In this document: in pieces, positions 6,734 to 24,635 of the stretch
Numbering within the stretch: the first letter of the stretch is position 1
Layout: the number at the start of each line of letters is the position of its first letter
Assembly (NCBI GenBank): GCA_964406195.1
Contig: CAYOQX010000004.1
Span: 1 to 30,429 of the forward strand
Direction: 5' to 3'
Length of the DNA: 30,429 nucleotides
DNA from: an uncultured Alkaliphilus sp.
Lineage (GTDB): Bacteria > Bacillota > Clostridia > Peptostreptococcales > Natronincolaceae
Translations under genes and position numbers: made by a program
Notes under the pieces: model-generated
The model's input: the letters and a program-made list of their open reading frames with translations, nothing else
The model's database searches: none
What the model was told of the DNA's origin: nothing

Positions 6734-6756
6734 TTCATTCCGGGACGGACAGTATA
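6734..6756 (+). repeat. Partial copy of the REP-like long unit
   Basis: TTCATTCCGGGACGGACAGTATA matches the reverse complement of 24574-24596 at 20/23. Confidence 0.7.
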
Positions 6757-8976: not shown

Positions 8977-9095
8977 AGTTCCTTTGCGGGTCAAATTATA
9001 CTGCTCGTCTCAGGATGGCAAAACCGAGGGTGTCCTATTGCCCGTATTAGGATGATAGAACCGAAGGTGTCATTCTGAACGCAAGAGAAGAATCT
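8977..9095. repeat. REP-like cluster (long unit reversed, duplicated linker, short unit)
   Basis: 8977-9019 resembles the reverse complement of 14619-14664. The segment CGT..CAGGATG.CA.AACCGA.GGTGTC occurs twice (about 9005-9034 and 9043-9071), followed by ATTCTGAACGCAAGAGAAGAATCT. Confidence 0.85.
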
Positions 9096-9110
9096 CAAAA
9101 AGCTTAAAAC

Positions 9111-9315: not shown

Positions 9316-10542
9316 ATGAATAAAAGATTAAAAATTATTATATTACTAGTTATAGTTTTGGCGGTGATAACGGGGCTAACACTATATTTTAGGAATTCTG
9401 CTACAACTGATCAGGCTCAAGAAGGTGGAAAATATACACCGGTAGAGGTAGATGAGGTCACCTCCGGGACTATTGAGAACAAGATCAAGATTAATGGTAA
9501 AGTAATTGCAAATGAGGAAATAGCGGTTATACCTAAAGCGATGGGTATAGTTACAAAGGTTAATGTTGAACTGGGAGATTTTGTTGAAAAGGGCAGTACC
9601 CTATTTATAATAGAACAAGATGATATTGGAAAAAGCGTTGAACAGGCAGCCAATGCTGTGCAGATGGCGGGCAACGGGGTAGCACAAGCCGAAAATGGTC
9701 TGCAGACCGCAAAACTCAATTATGAATTGAATAAAGAAAAAATGGAAAATGCTCAATTAAATCTGAAAAGGATTGAGGAATTATACAAAGAGGGAGCTGT
9801 GTCCAAGAGTGAATTGGAACAGGCACAGTTAGCAGCCAGCGAAAAAAATCTGGAAATATTGGCGAGTCAAGTCAATCAGGCGGAAGTCGCATACAATCAA
9901 GCTCTGAGCCAACTGAGGCAGGCAGAGATTGCACATGAGCAGGCACTGCTCGGATTTGATAATACAGTAGTTGAGGCCCCCATGAGCGGATTTGTATCCA
10001 CATTAAATGTTAAAGAAGGCCAGATTGCAACCAACAGTCAGCCTGCAGCTACAATTGTAGAGATGGATAAAGTGTGTATTCAGATCAATGTCGTTGAAAA
10101 TATAGTCAATAGATTGCAAATGGGGCAGGAAGTAGAGATCAACGTTCCCGCAGCCTTCGATGAATATGTCACAAGTACTATCAGTTACATTAGTCCAACG
10201 GCGGATGCAAGAACACAACTTTATATTGTAAAGATCTACATGGACAATTCTGACAAAAATATCAAGCCGGGTATGAATGGGGAAATAAAACTGAGCGTGG
10301 ATACTGTGGATTCTACAATTGTTATCAAGGGAAATGCTGTTTTGGACAAAGAGGACAAAAAAATAGTTTTTGTGGTAGAAAACGATACAGCTGTGGAAAA
10401 GGAGGTAACTACAGGCTTAGATACAGGGGATCATATAGAGATCAAAACAGGTCTCGAAAAAGGTGAACTTGTTATTGTAGAGGGACAGCATTATGTAGAA
10501 GATGGTGGAAAAGTGAAGGTAATAAGGGGTGATCAGCGTTGA
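9316..10542 (+). CDS. RND efflux periplasmic adaptor (MFP), N-terminal TM anchor
   Basis: GIVTKVNVELGDFVEKG, long alpha-hairpin, VEAPMSGFV, IKPGMNG; stop overlaps the permease TTG start. Confidence 0.93.
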   Translation: MNKRLKIIILLVIVLAVITGLTLYFRNSATTDQAQEGGKYTPVEVDEVTSGTIENKIKINGKVIANEEIAVIPKAMGIVTKVNVELGDFVEKGSTLFIIEQDDIGKSVEQAANAVQMAGNGVAQAENGLQTAKLNYELNKEKMENAQLNLKRIEELYKEGAVSKSELEQAQLAASEKNLEILASQVNQAEVAYNQALSQLRQAEIAHEQALLGFDNTVVEAPMSGFVSTLNVKEGQIATNSQPAATIVEMDKVCIQINVVENIVNRLQMGQEVEINVPAAFDEYVTSTISYISPTADARTQLYIVKIYMDNSDKNIKPGMNGEIKLSVDTVDSTIVIKGNAVLDKEDKKIVFVVENDTAVEKEVTTGLDTGDHIEIKTGLEKGELVIVEGQHYVEDGGKVKVIRGDQR

Positions 10543-13500
10543 ATCTATCGAGTTTAGCTGTAAAGAGACCTGTTACAATAACTATGATAGTTTTGGTTGT
10601 TGTTTTGCTGGGGGCAATCTCTTTAAACAGATTGCCTATCGATCTGTTTCCGGAGATAGAATTACCTATAGCTGTTGTATCTACTTCCTATACCGAGGCA
10701 GGACCTCAAGAGGTAGAAAATTTGATTACAAAGCGAATAGAGGGGGTCATTGCCACTGTGGGAAATATTGACTCCATAGATTCTATCACATCCCAGGGCA
10801 ATTCAATTGTAGTAGCCCAGTTTAATGAAGGAACAGATATGGATTTTGCGGCATTGGAAATGAGAGAAAAAATAGATTTAATAAAAGGTTTTTTACCGGA
10901 GGACGCATCAGAGCCGATTGTATTAAAAATCGACCCAAATATTATGCCAATACTACAGATATCTTTATCTACTAGTGGGGACTTGGCAGAGCTGCAGTCT
11001 TTGGCGGAGGATACCCTCAGCCAGAGGTTAGAAAGATTGGAAGGTGTTGCCTCCGTTAGTGTAGGCGGGAAATTTATAAACGAAATTCAGATAGAGGTAG
11101 AACAGAACAGTTTGGCTAGCTACGGTCTGAATATAAATCAATTGGCACAGATTATAGGCAGCAGCAATATGAACCTATCAGGTGGAACTGTAAGCAAAGG
11201 GGTCCAAAAATTATCTGTGCGGGTTGTGGGTGAATTCAGTACCGTTGATGAGATAAGGGATATGCCTATCACTTTGCCAACCGGTGAGGTTATTAAGCTG
11301 AGTGATATCGCTGCGGTAAAATTGACTAACAAAGATGTCAGTGCTATTTCACGGACCAATGGTAAGGACAGTATAAACATTTCTATACAGAAACAATCCG
11401 GGAAAAACACAGTGCAGGCAGCGGATTTGGTCAACAAGGAGATTGAGGAACTCAGAAAAGATTATCCAAATATAGACATTGATGTAGTGTTAGATAGCTC
11501 GACTATAATCAAGGATTCTATCAACAACTTGACAACAAACGCCGTTATAGGTTCGATACTTGCTGTTGTCATTCTGTATATCTTTTTAAAAAATATAAGA
11601 ACAACACTTGTTATAGGAACATCAATCCCTATATCTCTGATTGCATCGTTTACGCTGTTGTATATCAATAAAATAACATTAAATATGATGACCCTTGGTG
11701 GGTTGGCACTGGCTGTAGGTATGTTGGTGGACAGTGCTATTGTGGTGTTGGAAAATATATATCGCTTTAGATTGGAAGGATACTCTAAACAGGAAGCTGC
11801 TATAAAAGGTGCGTCTGAAGTGGGTATGGCCATCACTGCGTCTACTTTAACTACAATAGCAGTGTTTATTCCTATAGTATTTATAGAGGGAATGATAGGA
11901 ACTGTATTTAAAGATTTTGCTTTGACAGTTACTTTATCCTTAACTGCTTCGCTGTTGGTATCTTTGACATTTATACCCATGTTATCGTCTAAAATTTTAA
12001 CAGTAGATAATGGCGGACAGCATGATGATTGTCACCCTGAGCAGAGCGAACGGGTCTCAAACAATTTAAAATGCAGATTCTTCACTATGTTCAGAATGAC
12101 AAAAAAGACGTCCGGAAAGAAAAAACTAGAGTCTATTTCCAATATCCTTGATGATGTATTTAACAGAGTAGGGGATTTATATAAAAAGTTATTGTCTACA
12201 AGTCTCGAACGCAGAAAGACTGTTGTAATTGTTTCAGTAGTTATATTTGCTTTGAGTATGGCCAGTTTATTTGGTGTGGTTACGGAATTTTTCCCTACTA
12301 TGGATGAAGGGACTATATCTATTGATATAAATATGCCCTTAGGGACAAAAATTGAAAAAGTGGATAAGCTGGCCGGTGTTGTTGAGGAAAAACTGGCAGG
12401 GATTGATGAAATAGATGTGATATTTACCAATGTAGGTGCAGGAAATATTCTGATGGGCGGCAGTTCCGGCAGTGACAAAGGGACCATCTCGGTTAGATTA
12501 GTCAAATTGAGGGACAGAAAGAGAAGTACTGCTGAGGTTGCAGAAGAAATCAGGACCTTAGTGAAGGATATTCCGGGTGCGGAGATTCTGGTAGGGGTGA
12601 CATCAAGTATAGACATGATGGGAGGAGTAAGCACACCTATAAGCGTGAGTGTAAAAGGGGATGACCTGGGAGTATTAGAGGAAATATCTGATGATTTTAA
12701 ACAGATTATTGAATCTGTGGAAGGAACCAGGGAGGTCAAAACCAGTTTAAGTGAAGCGGTACCCGAAATTGAGGTTTTGATAGATAAGGATGTTGCCGCG
12801 ACTTATGGTCTGACGACAGCTCAGATTGCATCTGCTGTTAAAGGCGGGGCAACCGGATCCACGGTGACTAAGTATAAGGAAGAAGGCAAGGAGATAGATG
12901 TAGTAATAAAAGTATCGGGAGATATCACGGACAGCTTGTCTGATTTTGAACAGCTGAGCATAACCGGTCCGACCGGGGTAAATATACCGCTGACACAGGT
13001 GGCAGATTTAATCATAAAAAAGGGACCTATTCAAATAAGCCGAGAACAGCAGGAAAGAGCGGTGACCGTCACCGGTCAGATCGCAGACAGGGACATGAGC
13101 AGTATCACTGCAGATATTGCTAAAAAGTTACAAGAGTATGAGATGCCCAGAGGTTATCACTACAATATAGGCGGGGAACATGAAGATATGGTGGAGGCTT
13201 TTGAACAGCTCTTTTTAGCTCTTGCACTTGCGGTAGTGTTGATATACATGGTAATGGCCGCACAATTTGAATCGTTAATACATCCATTTATCATTATGTT
13301 TACTGTGCCTCTGGCCTTTTCCGGTGGAGTGCTGGCCCTATTTATAACTAGAAGGGCCCTGGGGGTAACATCTCTCATAGGGGTAATTATATTAGCAGGT
13401 ATTGTAGTGAACAATGGTATTGTACTGGTGGACTATATCAATGTATTGCGCAGCGAGGGCAAAGAAAGAACTGAAGCTGTTACTACGGCAGGGACGGTCA

Positions 13501-13733
13501 GATTGAGGCCGATTTTAATGACCACATTGACCACAATTTTAGGGCTTGTGCCGATAGCTCTTGGTATTGGTGAAGGAGCGGAATTGCAGGCACCAATGGC
13601 GACAGTGGTTATAGGTGGATTAACTTTATCTACAATTTTAACCTTAATATTTATTCCGGTACTGTACACAATATTTGATGATATTTCAGATTCCCTCAAG
13701 TCAAAATTTAGGAGAGCATCACAGAGTGCCTAA
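10539..13733 (+). CDS. RND (AcrB/SwrC-like) permease 2
   Basis: 1064 aa; AVKRPVT, LPIDLFPEIELP, GMLVDSAIVVLENI, GIVVNNGIVLVD, RLRPILMTTLTT. Confidence 0.96.
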   Translation: MNLSSLAVKRPVTITMIVLVVVLLGAISLNRLPIDLFPEIELPIAVVSTSYTEAGPQEVENLITKRIEGVIATVGNIDSIDSITSQGNSIVVAQFNEGTDMDFAALEMREKIDLIKGFLPEDASEPIVLKIDPNIMPILQISLSTSGDLAELQSLAEDTLSQRLERLEGVASVSVGGKFINEIQIEVEQNSLASYGLNINQLAQIIGSSNMNLSGGTVSKGVQKLSVRVVGEFSTVDEIRDMPITLPTGEVIKLSDIAAVKLTNKDVSAISRTNGKDSINISIQKQSGKNTVQAADLVNKEIEELRKDYPNIDIDVVLDSSTIIKDSINNLTTNAVIGSILAVVILYIFLKNIRTTLVIGTSIPISLIASFTLLYINKITLNMMTLGGLALAVGMLVDSAIVVLENIYRFRLEGYSKQEAAIKGASEVGMAITASTLTTIAVFIPIVFIEGMIGTVFKDFALTVTLSLTASLLVSLTFIPMLSSKILTVDNGGQHDDCHPEQSERVSNNLKCRFFTMFRMTKKTSGKKKLESISNILDDVFNRVGDLYKKLLSTSLERRKTVVIVSVVIFALSMASLFGVVTEFFPTMDEGTISIDINMPLGTKIEKVDKLAGVVEEKLAGIDEIDVIFTNVGAGNILMGGSSGSDKGTISVRLVKLRDRKRSTAEVAEEIRTLVKDIPGAEILVGVTSSIDMMGGVSTPISVSVKGDDLGVLEEISDDFKQIIESVEGTREVKTSLSEAVPEIEVLIDKDVAATYGLTTAQIASAVKGGATGSTVTKYKEEGKEIDVVIKVSGDITDSLSDFEQLSITGPTGVNIPLTQVADLIIKKGPIQISREQQERAVTVTGQIADRDMSSITADIAKKLQEYEMPRGYHYNIGGEHEDMVEAFEQLFLALALAVVLIYMVMAAQFESLIHPFIIMFTVPLAFSGGVLALFITRRALGVTSLIGVIILAGIVVNNGIVLVDYINVLRSEGKERTEAVTTAGTVRLRPILMTTLTTILGLVPIALGIGEGAELQAPMATVVIGGLTLSTILTLIFIPVLYTIFDDISDSLKSKFRRASQSA
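12029..12102. repeat. REP-like inverted doublet inserted in-frame in RND2
   Basis: TTGTCACCCTGAGCAGAGCGAACGGGTCT, 17 nt, AGATTCTTCACTATGTTCAGAATGACAA. The reverse complement of the right arm (TTGTCATTCTGAACATAGTGAAGAATCT) matches intergenic copies such as 19848-19874. Confidence 0.88.
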
Positions 13734-13756
13734 GAGTATAAAAACGAGGTGAAAAA

Positions 13757-14341
13757 GTGGGGTCATTAAAGGAGCAAAGGAAAATTGAAATTATTGAGGC
13801 TGCAATCAGGGTGTTTGGGGAATATGGTTATCATGAGGGTAAAATGGAAGAAATTGCAGACAAAGCGGGTATTGGAAAGAGCACTATATATGAATACTTT
13901 AGCAGCAAGAAAGAAATATTTCAGAAGATGCTACAGCATGTGTTTGAAACATATATAGAAGAGGTCCAAAAAGCTACTTTAAAGAAGAGCAGTGCGAGGG
14001 ATAAATTCATGGCGCTGTTAAATTATCACTGGAATTTTATTGATCTATATGTCGATACCATAGAGCAAATCTTTTTTCAGTTTAAAAATGTTTCAGATGA
14101 AATCAGTCCGTACATCATACGTGCGCATAAAAGCATGGTCGATTTTCTCTTCGGAATCGTTGCAGGGGGAATAAAGACGGGGGAGATTCGGACTAACATA
14201 GATAAAGAAAAGGCTGCTTTCATAATGTTGAGCATCGTTGCCGGCAGTAATTTTATGAGATGCTCCCCTAAAGATAAAAAATATGATGATATTGATGCTA
14301 TGCATATTATTGATATTTTGTTTGAGGGCTTGAGCGGTTAA
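13757..14341 (+). CDS. TetR/AcrR-family transcriptional regulator
   Basis: IIEAAIRVFGEYGYHEGKMEEIADKAGIGKSTIYEYFSSKKEI N-terminal HTH. Confidence 0.95.
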   Translation: MGSLKEQRKIEIIEAAIRVFGEYGYHEGKMEEIADKAGIGKSTIYEYFSSKKEIFQKMLQHVFETYIEEVQKATLKKSSARDKFMALLNYHWNFIDLYVDTIEQIFFQFKNVSDEISPYIIRAHKSMVDFLFGIVAGGIKTGEIRTNIDKEKAAFIMLSIVAGSNFMRCSPKDKKYDDIDAMHIIDILFEGLSG

Positions 14342-14368
14342 GGATAATAAAAAAATATTTCTCATCCG

Positions 14369-14424
14369 GGGAGATTGCATATATATATACATATATATAT
14401 GCAATCTCCCTATTTGTCTTTTTT
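14369..14424 (+). terminator. Intrinsic terminator-like hairpin with an (AT)n core
   Basis: GGGAGATTGCATATATATAT-AC-ATATATATATGCAATCTCCC (perfect 20-bp arms) followed by TATTTGTCTTTTTT, 27 nt after the tetR stop. Confidence 0.75.
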
Positions 14425-14565
14425 GTAGTAAATTAGCACCGTTTTTTTGCTATAATAGTGGAAATTGCTTGAAATAAAGACACAATTATATAATAATTAT
14501 ATGTAAGAGATTGTACGAGTGATACGCCGGACCGTATAAAAATTGCTATCTTGGAACTGACAGAT

Positions 14566-14591
14566 ACAGGAGCAGACCCATGTGTGTCTCC
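14566..14591 (+). repeat. Degenerate GTAG-type palindrome
   Basis: ACAGGAGCAGACCCATGTGTGTCTCC resembles 9111-9134. Confidence 0.35.
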
Positions 14592-14618
14592 GTGACCCAC
14601 GAAGTATCTTGATTTTAA

Positions 14619-14664
14619 GTCATCCTGAGACGGACAGTATATGTTTGGCCCGCGAAGGATTTCT
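14619..14664 (+). repeat. REP-like long unit
   Basis: GTCATCCTGAGACGGACAGTATATGTTTGGCCCGCGAAGGATTTCT; its reverse complement matches 8977-9019, 19603-19618 plus 19814-19835, and 24574-24596. Confidence 0.85.
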
Positions 14665-14716
14665 TATACAGTCCGGCATATTAGAAATTAAAATAATTAA
14701 TAAGGGGGTTTCAGTT

Positions 14717-14941
14717 ATGAAGTGTGAACATTTGCAAGCCTGTCCATTTTATATTTATAACGACAAAATGGATATAGAAAGTGGTATAGGTAAAATGTAT
14801 AAGAAACGATATTGTTTAGGAAACAAAGAGGAATGTGCACGGTATATAGTTAATAAAGAATTGGGTGCAGAATTTGTTCTTGTGAACCTTTATCCTAACA
14901 TGCACGGAAAAGCAGATGAAATTATTGCTCAAAGCAAATAG
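14717..14941 (+). CDS. Small Cys-rich hypothetical protein (74 aa)
   Basis: RBS AAGGGGGT before ATG 14717; MKCEHLQACPF...KRYCLGNKEECARY. The track start at 14582 reads through repeat DNA and is probably overextended. Confidence 0.8.
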   Translation: MKCEHLQACPFYIYNDKMDIESGIGKMYKKRYCLGNKEECARYIVNKELGAEFVLVNLYPNMHGKADEIIAQSK

Positions 14942-14967
14942 CATTAACATATTATAGGAGGGAAAAA

Positions 14968-16020
14968 TTGAAAAATAAAATATGCAAGAAAATAGTAGTA
15001 GTTATTATTGCTATCCTAATATTTAGTTTGTTCTTAGGCATAATAGCATCAGCAGATGATAATTTTAAAAATTTGAGGGCATGGTTTGGAAACATCAGTA
15101 TTTATAGGAATAACCAACAAGTGCATTTAGTTGGCGATGATAAGCCTTTTATTATTGATGGCAGGACATATGTCCCTTTAAGGGTGATGGCAAATATCTT
15201 CAATAAAGAGGTTGGTTGGAACGGTGCAAATTATAGAATAGATTTAAACGATAAGCCGGGTGATAATTTAATTTATCTGACACAACAGCTAACCGAGGCC
15301 CAGACAAAGGTTCGCAAGCTGGAAACTGAGGTTGCACAGTTAGAAAAAGAATTAGCAGACAGAGATAGATATGGCAAAAGAGGCAACATAAGAGAACTAG
15401 AATCATATTTAAATAGGCAACATGGTACATATAAGAAAATTGAATTTGACATCAATTTATATGAGGGAAAAAAGGACACAATAGAGGTAGATATATATGT
15501 AGATTTAGATTATTATGAATATGAGTGGGATAAACTGTCTAAATCAAATAAAAAAAGCTATCTTCAGGACATTGCAGACGATATATTATATGATTATAAA
15601 AATGCCGATGTGGAAGGTCTAATAATGGACAGTTCCACGAGTAAAAACAAAACATTAGTGTCATTCTATACAAAATCAAATGGTACTGTGGTGGTAGACA
15701 CTGACTATGAATGGGATAGTGGTAAGTATGGCAGTTTATATGATTTAGAAGATGATCTAAATGATTATTATAACAAGCATGAGGGTGTATATTTTGATAT
15801 AGAATTATATGGTGATAAGGATGATATCAGGGTATATGTTGTTGCAGAATATGATGATCTATATTATCTGGGCAAAAAAGAAATAAAAAAATATCTACAA
15901 GAATTGTATGATGAGATAATATGGGCATTTCCAAAAGCATATGTAGACGGATACATAGAAGATGATTATACAGAATATTACTTTTCTTTTGATAAATGGG
16001 GAGATGTATATTTAGACTAA
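14968..16020 (+). CDS. Secreted copper-amine-oxidase N-terminal (stalk) domain protein with a coiled coil and two acidic repeats
   Basis: Signal peptide; PFIIDGRTYVPLRVMANIFNKEVGWNG stalk motif; coiled coil LTEAQTKVRKLETEVAQLEKEL; two similar Tyr/Asp-rich C-terminal domains. Confidence 0.85.
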   Translation: MKNKICKKIVVVIIAILIFSLFLGIIASADDNFKNLRAWFGNISIYRNNQQVHLVGDDKPFIIDGRTYVPLRVMANIFNKEVGWNGANYRIDLNDKPGDNLIYLTQQLTEAQTKVRKLETEVAQLEKELADRDRYGKRGNIRELESYLNRQHGTYKKIEFDINLYEGKKDTIEVDIYVDLDYYEYEWDKLSKSNKKSYLQDIADDILYDYKNADVEGLIMDSSTSKNKTLVSFYTKSNGTVVVDTDYEWDSGKYGSLYDLEDDLNDYYNKHEGVYFDIELYGDKDDIRVYVVAEYDDLYYLGKKEIKKYLQELYDEIIWAFPKAYVDGYIEDDYTEYYFSFDKWGDVYLD

Positions 16021-19602: not shown

Positions 19603-19874
19603 AGATCCTTCGCGGGCCTCGTTTTTATGATCTAACCCAATCCGACATTCAAGTCTTTCAAATACAGCATCTTCCATCTGTTAGCATTTTTATTAAATCA
19701 AAGGTATCCTATTTATTATTAATTGAATGTTGGATTGATGGTAGGTCAAATGCAACCAAACATCAAATTTGCACAACCGAAGGGAATAAACAAATTTGCA
19801 ATGTTTGACTGCGATACTGTCCGTATCAGGATGACAACACCGAAGGTGTCATTCTGAACGCATGTGAAGAATCT
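19603..19874. repeat. REP-like doublet whose long unit is split by a 195-nt hairpin-rich insert
   Basis: AGATCCTTCGCGGGCC (19603-18), insert, ATACTGTCCGTATCAGGATGAC (19814-35), AACACCGAAGGT, GTCATTCTGAACGCATGTGAAGAATCT (19848-74); a further degenerate short unit lies at 19921-19942. Confidence 0.8.
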
Positions 19875-24474: not shown

Positions 24475-24635
24475 CGTCATTCTGAAAGGGACCGGGGGAC
24501 TGGTGCAGTAACCCATTGAACGATTGTTGAACTATCGTTAAACTGTTGTTGAACTATTGTTTAACCATTATTATATACTGTCCGTCCCAGGATGACAACA
24601 CCGAAGGTATCATTCTGAACGCATGTAAAGAATCT
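24475..24635. repeat. REP-like composite containing a 5 x 11-bp tandem array
   Basis: CGTCATTCTGA (24475-85), array 24516-24570, then 24575-24635, which is 57/61 identical to 19814-19874. Confidence 0.85.

Follow-up and report, generated by a model that had tools for sequence, protein, structure and literature searches.

How a palindromic repeat that is dispersed between genes comes to lie within the coding sequence of an intact protein, and what becomes of that protein, is the question raised by the stretch of DNA described here. The stretch (hereafter the window) is the 30,429-nt contig CAYOQX010000004.1 of the uncultured Alkaliphilus sp. assembly GCA_964406195.1, read on its forward strand. 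The element in question is an inverted doublet of two hairpin units, and its host is a gene for an efflux permease of the RND family. A preliminary description, made from the letters alone, had taken the element for a dispersed palindromic repeat translated in frame inside an intact RND permease. Comparison with homologues, independent assemblies and other genomes supports that core reading: the gene carries an in-frame, lineage-specific and fixed insertion of a doublet of the repeat family. The main features are as follows.

10539–13733, + strand: RND (HAE1/AcrB-type) efflux permease gene, 1064 aa, TTG start, intact (Pfam ACR_tran on homologues, Protein Data Bank (PDB) matches, dN/dS 0.08)
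12030–12101, + strand: inverted hairpin doublet, 72 nt, TGTCA...TGACA, in frame as residues 498–521; 72 nt longer than the empty allele L027
12031–12056, + strand: Unit A, 26 nt, with its own ACCC/GGGT stem, internal TGA/GAA, inner GC/GC stem and loop AGA (unit fold; stem covariation across copies)
12057–12075, + strand: spacer, 19 nt, A/T-rich, homologous to the spacers of the extragenic doublets of the genus (spacer comparison and alignment)
12076–12100, − strand: Unit B, 25 nt, with its own ATTC/GAAT stem, inner AC/GT stem and loop ATA (unit fold)

A hairpin doublet in frame within the permease gene

The boundaries of the element were given by the host sequence downstream of it. The nearest protein without the insert (P0004, 88% identity, encoded on Logan contig L027) is exactly 72 nt shorter in its gene, and its KKSAGQ is homologous to the KKTSGK that stands 3' of the insert; KKTSGK is thus host sequence, the junctions read GAT/TGTCA and TGACA/AAAAAG, and the host gene resumes at AAAAAG from position 12102. 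The inverted doublet reported earlier at 12029–12102 (74 bp) therefore stands, but its extent is reduced by one base at each end. The doublet encodes 24 residues of the 1064-aa open reading frame (ORF), CHPEQSERVSNNLKCRFFTMFRMT, which are identical to the insert peptide quoted at that time. The doublet is of a 72-nt subtype that contains no stop codon in the frame used, and the RND gene consequently stayed open. By contrast, the usual form of the doublet in this genus is 71 nt long and would shift the frame.

Two pairing modes are available to the element: each unit forms a small hairpin of its own, and Unit A can also pair with Unit B. The 72 nt fold at −22.9 kcal/mol, and with 15 nt of flank on each side at −28.5 kcal/mol (z = −3.1). 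The strong messenger RNA hairpin claimed earlier is thus a real one, but it is the weakest among the 14 doublets compared. The doublet nearest to the intragenic copy (62 of 72 positions identical) comes from G011, a complete genome that represents another genus of the family. It has the same 26-nt and 25-nt unit types, the same layout and the same total length, and folds at −25.6 kcal/mol; since the weaker hairpin is common to both copies, it is a property of the subtype rather than a sign of decay. No U-run follows the intragenic hairpin, no terminator was predicted there, and terminator and promoter signals at the insert did not exceed the shuffled expectation.

The homologues revealed that the 24 residues are an addition. 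In a search of 40 related genomes, nearly every homologue was split into two matches, one from query residue 1 to about 491, the other from about 525 to 1063. A gap of about 25 aa exactly at this place had been predicted, and alignment of 21 homologues from relatives, including two homeologues from the same bin and five same-genus genomes, gave a gap of 24–27 columns that covers the 24 residues. The identical gap was found in database homologues down to about 60% identity, so that about 30 aligned homologues in total lack the peptide and none of them carries it. The repeat family is present in all nine same-genus genomes (8–92 strict copies each), and the gap in the orthologues therefore does not stem from a lack of the repeat. 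The gene thus holds an in-frame copy of a repeat that is absent from its orthologues at that position.

The same junctions recur in independent data. A protein of 98% identity (P0003), encoded on a 137-kb contig of an independent NCBI metagenome assembly (L026), has the identical insert; the window and L026 share 98.5% nucleotide identity over 15.2 kb, with zero differences within 12029–12102. The stretch is present in six sequencing runs from five studies (a bioreactor in 2019 and anaerobic digesters in 2024), and contigs from four runs of four studies span the insert, three of them (X1, X3 and X6) with 0–3 differences and the fourth (X4) as a contig of 7.3 kb. The ORF is intact in these contigs; contigs of this lineage with an absent or frameshifted insert, which would have spoken against the early description, did not emerge. 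Contigs that skip 104 nt and have 23 other letters instead were considered as an empty allele and rejected, because they are about 13% divergent and represent the homeologue. No RNA runs carrying the stretch were listed among the runs found. The insertion is fixed in this species-level lineage.

Site of the insertion in the pump and its operon

The host protein is an RND pump of the HAE1 type. The precomputed Pfam family ACR_tran is assigned to its homologues, including P0003, and PDB matches to MdtB, MexB and AcrB (E values of 1e-81 to 1e-116) cover both halves of the protein. These matches agree with the ACR_tran fold of 12 transmembrane (TM) helices and two large periplasmic loops, and the secondary structure of an AlphaFold2 model is consistent with it. 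The model was built from a 30-sequence alignment and has a mean pLDDT of 70.8; it predicts a helix at residues 452–486 (TM6) and the next confident helix at residues 529–557, with pLDDT values of 31–37 across residues 489–530. Solved RND pumps (MdtB, MexB, AcrB and others) align up to query residues 489–497 and resume near residue 531. The linkers of homologues at this site are 7–12 residues long, charged and variable. The counterpart in AcrB is the loop at about residues 499–512, which is cytoplasmic and disordered and was reportedly unresolved in the first crystal structures. In the model, the insert is located in a low-confidence cytoplasmic loop after TM6 (pLDDT below 50 over residues 489–530), equivalent to the TM6–TM7 loop of AcrB, and the loop would be compatible with the fold; the predicted helices and the alignment gap against AcrB, MexB and MdtB bear out the original placement in the cytoplasmic linker after TM6. 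Such a site is the sort of place that tolerates extra residues.

The permease gene lies in an operon with an adaptor gene and is followed by a regulator gene:

9316–10542, + strand: membrane-fusion (adaptor) protein (MFP) gene, same operon (ORF; Pfam families of the identical gene in L026)
13757–14341, + strand: TetR-family regulator gene, downstream (ORF; TetR_N on the L026 and L027 counterparts)

Just 3' of the TetR gene, positions 14369–14410 form a perfect 20-bp inverted repeat with a 2-nt loop (two bases longer in L026), which is probably the terminator of that gene and is unrelated to the hairpin family.

Three homeologous MFP-RND-TetR loci are present in the bin, with 74–82% DNA identity: window positions 9500–16000, C34 (1–12456) and C113 (1–5701), of which C34 is syntenic with the window well past the operon. 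C34 and C113 may be paralogues or contigs of co-binned relatives (the contamination estimate of the bin is 4%).

Substitutions between the window and L026 occur in bunches. One bunch, of about 66 substitutions, occupies 475 nt of the RND gene (window 11414–11888), where dS is 0.32 versus 0.014 elsewhere and dN/dS is 0.06, and both variants are present in run X1. Further bunches lie at 14113–14315 (the 3' end of the TetR gene) and at 15675–15787 (just before synteny ends). From the pattern of substitutions, this bunching looks like recombination between related strains. A recombination tract that ends at the insert was considered and rejected, as its dense part stops about 140 nt upstream of the insert.

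A widespread family of TGTC-tagged hairpins

The preliminary description had recognised a dispersed repeat family without identifying it. The dispersal was confirmed, and the family could be named: it consists of TGTC-tagged hairpins of the class of CGTC-tagged repetitive extragenic palindromes (REPs) and Ssn-related motifs (SRMs). The consensus unit has a TGTC tag followed by ATCC-TGA-GC, the loop GAA, and GC-GAA-GGAT. The outer stem covaries across copies (TCC/GGA, TTC/GAA, CCC/GGG and CTC/GAG), as does the inner stem (GC/GC and AC/GT), and the internal TGA faces GAA, which allows a T-A pair and two G.A pairs. The GCGAAGC core of the unit is a well-known DNA mini-hairpin of exceptional stability, a feature in favour of the units acting in single-stranded form. 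Hirao, Yoshizawa and colleagues reportedly characterized such d(GCGAAGC) and GNA-triloop mini-hairpins in the 1990s. The canonical unit shares the GCGAAGC core with them, and a G-N-A loop with a closing C-G pair is retained in most variants, a likeness that favours folding as single-stranded DNA; the mini-hairpin is a biophysical motif, however, not a repeat family, and the loops of Units A and B are AGA and ATA.

Using the strict pattern GTCAYYCTGARC-N8-10-GRRTC and its reversed form as a control, we found units in 45 of 301 Clostridia genomes, belonging to 31 genera, with up to 125 copies per genome; the reversed control gave 0 matches in nearly all of the 301. Judged from these counts, the intragenic doublet is far beyond chance. 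The 1.98-Mb assembly studied here has 6 strict short units, 4 of them on the window contig, and 5 long-type units, again with 4 on the window contig. The extragenic units of the window are as follows.

9069–9094, + strand: short unit, in a composite array at 8997–9100 (family scan)
19848–19873, + strand: short unit, head-to-head with the long-type unit at 19814–19835 (family scan)
24609–24634, + strand: short unit starting with ATCA, paired with the long-type unit at 24575–24596 (family scan)
14619–14665, + strand: long-type unit of the kind found directly upstream of an Ssn-type GIY-YIG gene in G006 (window sequence; G006 cassette L193)

The long-type units (GTCATCC-TGAGACGGACAG...GAAGGAT) share their head with the short units and occur at 14619–14665, 6735–6753, 19814–19835 and 24575–24596. 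In all, 8 of the 11 family units of the assembly are located on this 30.4-kb contig (C4), among two efflux operons and giant surface-protein genes, a concentration that recalls the clustering of the Neisseria repeats called NTS around membrane-protein genes and that may result from contigs breaking at repeats elsewhere. Nearly all of the 92 copies in the same-genus genome G006 are identical, a sign of recent proliferation there. Many copies in relatives stand at contig ends, so that copy counts from metagenome-assembled genomes (MAGs) are underestimates. In two genomes of one genus (G104, and G192 with its contig C2), all 24–25 strict units lie on one strand; the 13 matches listed for G104 are all confined to one stretch of 36 kb (C5:155948–191770), which suggests a local, co-oriented array.

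The exact consensus 25-mer extends far beyond the Clostridia: among the matches listed, it was found in Acidobacteriota, Bacteroidota, Bacillota, Chloroflexota, Gemmatimonadota, Nitrospirota, Verrucomicrobiota, Planctomycetota, Patescibacteria, Bdellovibrionota, Pseudomonadota and others. Rfam gave nothing at gathering scores (matches with E values up to 5 were chance microRNA matches on an unrelated palindrome), and neither the DNA words nor the typical peptides of the repeat were found in literature full text.

The doublet is itself a recurrent form of the family. Arrangements of a forward unit, a spacer and a reverse unit, flanked by T and A, occur in G005, G006, G008, G011, G013, G030 and G326; they measure 64–74 nt including the flanking T and A, and those of the same genus have a similar spacer. 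Of 14 doublets, 13 have the head T-GTCA-YYC, as do the units of the window. The doublets of the genus are often nested in a further 16-bp inverted repeat, which the intragenic copy does not have.

CGTC-tagged REPs were described by Di Nocera et al. 2013 (PMC3733652) as hairpins with an unpaired tag that is sometimes TGTC or CCTC and an 8–9-bp stem starting with A-T and T-A; they form dimers, have been linked to no transposase, and are equated with the dRS3 repeats of Neisseria and with RPE-4 and RPE-6 among the Rickettsia palindromic elements (RPEs; Ogata et al. 2000, as cited in PMC3733652). The same study reports intragenic REPs, over half of them dimers or groups that encode 20–30 residues, and does not list Firmicutes among their hosts. 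The units studied here agree with this class in several respects: (i) they have the TGTC tag and a stem of ATYC-TGA-GC / GC-GAA-GRAT, with 9 positions and two G.A pairs, that opens with A-T and then T-A; (ii) they form inverted dimers; and (iii) they stand in frame in real genes, add 20–30 residues and are absent from orthologues. They differ in the tandem G.A/A.G pairs within the 9-position stem, in a loop that is mostly a 3-nt GNA (4–5 nt in some copies, compared with 4–5 nt in CGTC REPs), in a CTC or CTT tail instead of a sequence near CCA, and in the host gene, which is an RND permease here and a repair or replication gene there. The likeness to RPEs that had been pointed out at the start, namely in-frame insertion absent from orthologues, is one of behaviour, and since RPE-4 and RPE-6 count among the CGTC REPs (PMC3733652), it is probably a matter of kinship, not of analogy.

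The second related system is that of the Ssn nucleases. Chenal et al. 2025 (PMC11893778) described the NTS of Neisseria (CGTCATTCCCGCGMAVGCGGGAATCYRG, with the unpaired 5' head CGTCATTC) and the nuclease SsnA, a small GIY-YIG protein whose cleavage of single-stranded DNA takes place next to the hairpin; Ssn nucleases are those of CDD family cd10448. SRMs were found near 71% of ssnA homologues, and on both sides in 42%; the authors remark that NTS-ssnA-NTS resembles an insertion sequence, mobility not having been shown. NTS are rarely intragenic (2% in N. meningitidis). The units studied here resemble NTS and SRMs as oriented hairpins with a conserved unpaired 5' head, (C/T)GTCATYC, and a GRATC end, in tens to hundreds of copies, and in relatives, inverted units likewise bracket a single-domain GIY-YIG gene of about 95 aa. 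By contrast, in-frame insertions of the kind seen here are not reported in PMC11893778, and the published degenerate SRM motif, run as a regular expression, matched an NTS-like string made from the consensus but neither Unit A nor Unit B, nor two extragenic units of the window, nor the canonical 25-mer. The mismatch arises because of the internal TGA/GAA pairs, and a subclass of this kind would escape a search with that motif.

The family is linked to Ssn-type genes in relatives. All 8 of the Ssn-type GIY-YIG genes or fragments examined in 7 genomes have units 4–130 nt away; they are the genes of the proteins P0123 (G006) and P0124 (G320), both of about 95 aa, and homologues in G011 (two), G001, G012, G029 and G009. 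The pattern scan placed inverted units within 4–60 nt on both sides in G011, G001 and G029, 16–18 nt upstream and 7–57 nt downstream. G006 and G320 also have inverted units on both sides if long-type or variant units recognised by eye are included (in G006 locus L193, a long-type unit lies directly upstream of the gene and a short unit just past the stop codon), and in G012 the units on the two sides have the same orientation. The bracketing of a small single-domain GIY-YIG gene was thus found in relatives only. The Ssn-type proteins score with Pfam GIY-YIG (PF01541), and no PDB relative of them was found. The genome studied here encodes UvrC and a YhbQ-like GIY-YIG protein of 79 aa; the gene of the latter has no flanking units, its protein no NCBIfam match, and tblastn of P0123 and P0124 against this genome found nothing better than that gene (E value of 3e-7). 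In 80 loci from many phyla, no recurring family emerged among the ORFs within 600 nt of units.

The insert is the sole intragenic copy in this genome, and none of 45 units sampled from relatives and other Clostridia is intragenic. A cross-phylum sample of 184 units in 120 loci contained 36 units in long open frames, of which six were scanned against Pfam; most of the 36, from high-GC genomes, are probably there by chance. Five real proteins in this sample have units in frame, either inside the protein or splitting it. Four are from Bacteroidales or Bacteroidia MAGs from rumen or gut (RsgA, ATP synthase delta subunit, UvrA and a class-V aminotransferase), and one is from a Lachnospiraceae MAG (a phosphomethylpyrimidine-kinase-like protein). 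Their loci, according to the Pfam scan, are:

L084:2–1210, − strand: in-frame copy
L150:3373–3999, − strand: in-frame copy
L161:2–2833, − strand: in-frame copy
L187:3533–4774, − strand: in-frame copy
L105:4947–5993, − strand: in-frame copy

The copy in RsgA is an array of several units. A FadB-like protein (L149) was considered as a sixth case and not counted, its units lying upstream of the first domain. The suggestion that this Firmicute family adds protein sequence as RPEs do accordingly rests on the case described here, together with the Bacteroidales proteins and the one Lachnospiraceae MAG.

Origin of the insertion

In our interpretation, which we hold with a probability of roughly 0.85, a non-autonomous hairpin doublet composed of two inverted TGTC-tagged units and a 19-nt spacer was inserted into the coding sequence of the TM6–TM7 loop of the RND permease. 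As its 72 nt have no stop codon in the frame used, the gene stayed open and gained 24 residues in a cytoplasmic loop that in homologues has little length, little order and a variable sequence. The units belong to a pan-bacterial class of oriented hairpins, the CGTC/TGTC-tagged REPs and SRMs, and the doublet may have been spread in trans by a single-strand DNA nuclease of the Ssn type for which the folded hairpins were the substrate; the genome may since have lost its Ssn gene, or the gene may lie in an unassembled part, which would leave the few orphan copies now seen. Since a small Ssn-type GIY-YIG gene stands between such units in relatives, the doublet looks like an empty cassette. A more specific proposal is that those TGTC hairpins whose core is GCGAAGC make up a pan-bacterial clade of SRMs, overlooked by the published motif, and that the 69–72-nt doublets are deletion derivatives of unit-ssn-unit cassettes, moved in trans by Ssn; we put it forward tentatively, as a possibility with the odds somewhat against it.

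Several points weigh against this interpretation. Transposition by Ssn-type nucleases has never been shown, the present assembly, which is 93% complete, yielded no Ssn-type gene, and the published SRM motif does not match the units. Comparison of the boundaries with P0004/L027 revealed neither a target-site duplication nor any other trace from which the mechanism could be read. In addition, there is little evidence that the pump has worked since the insertion: the two alleles that carry the insert differ mostly within the one probable recombination tract (codons 154–490, dS of 0.32), and outside it they differ by 7 synonymous and 5 non-synonymous changes, 12 in total, so that selection after the insertion is barely measured. 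Finally, the two homeologous MFP-RND-TetR operons in the bin (C34 and C113) could cover for a damaged pump.

These last points would also fit a pump crippled by the insertion, that is to say, a young pseudogene that is still open while the homeologous operons do the work. We consider this improbable, since the ORF is intact in every data set from the 2019 and 2024 samples of separate studies, the insert lies in a disordered loop and spares the conserved TM and porter domains, dN/dS of the permease gene is 0.08 against L026, L027 and C34, and C34 and C113 may belong to co-binned relatives. From these comparisons, the pump is most likely still made and its function appears to be retained, and nothing suggests that the function was changed. 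A hairpin kept for a function of its own, either as an mRNA structure that tunes translation or decay or as an Ssn or recombination signal comparable to NTS, which modulate transformation in Neisseria (PMC11893778), would agree with the z-score of the fold, with the crowding of units among efflux and surface-protein genes on this contig, which NTS also show at membrane-protein genes, and with a tract of raised divergence that ends 22–140 nt 5' of the insert. This is fractionally less probable still: the hairpin is the weakest of the doublets compared and is accompanied by no terminator or promoter signal above the shuffled expectation, the tract does not end at the insert itself, no Ssn gene and no RNA runs were found for this genome, and the breaking of contigs at repeats biases where copies are seen.

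As to the mover, the doublet could instead be a REPIN mobilized by a REP-associated tyrosine transposase (RAYT; Y1, IS200-like). As in the systems of Bertels and Rainey 2011 (PMC3116915) and Nunvar et al. 2010 (PMC2817692), two inverted units and a spacer fold as one long, non-autonomous hairpin, copies are near-identical in some genomes, no target-site duplication is made, and the genome has three RAYT-like Y1_Tnp genes of 265–269 aa. The three genes (C48:5386–6183, C153 and C233:203–1000; L023–L025) encode proteins with a C-terminal extension, and two of them are bracketed by G/C-rich inverted repeats of their own that are unrelated to the TGTC hairpins. However, all three are flanked by palindromes other than the units, a unit lies within 1.5 kb of only 1 of 17 Y1_Tnp loci in five unit-rich genomes, the tag is TGTC and not GTAG, and units stand beside every Ssn-type GIY-YIG gene examined. 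This test of flanks largely refutes the REPIN/RAYT explanation, which we consider very unlikely. We regard an assembly or binning artefact that joined the doublet to the gene as a negligible possibility; the MAG is broken into 320 contigs, and in relatives these repeats are frequent at contig ends, but the junctions are identical in the independent NCBI assembly and in the Logan contigs of the four runs.

The insertion of a hairpin doublet into the permease gene is of a known kind, as in-frame REP and RPE dimers adding 20–30 residues were described in 2013, and it represents no new kind of system. What is new is the lineage and the host gene, an RND permease, for a coding insertion of the CGTC-REP/RPE type. 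It provides a clean and dated case of a hairpin repeat that has turned into part of the protein sequence of a membrane transporter, with the filled site, the empty site and the extragenic relatives all available, and it joins the RPE-type coding insertions, the CGTC-tagged REPs and the Ssn nucleases of 2025. It also draws attention to a very widespread hairpin subclass that escapes the published SRM motif yet shows the same association with nuclease genes. If the tentative proposal of movement by Ssn were true, the inserts in the RND permease, UvrA, RsgA, the ATP synthase delta subunit and the class-V aminotransferase would be footprints of an as yet undemonstrated, GIY-YIG-driven transposition of single-stranded DNA. 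For annotation, peptides resembling CHPERSEGS, ILRFAQDD and SFASLRMT within conserved proteins are recognisable as derived from the repeat.

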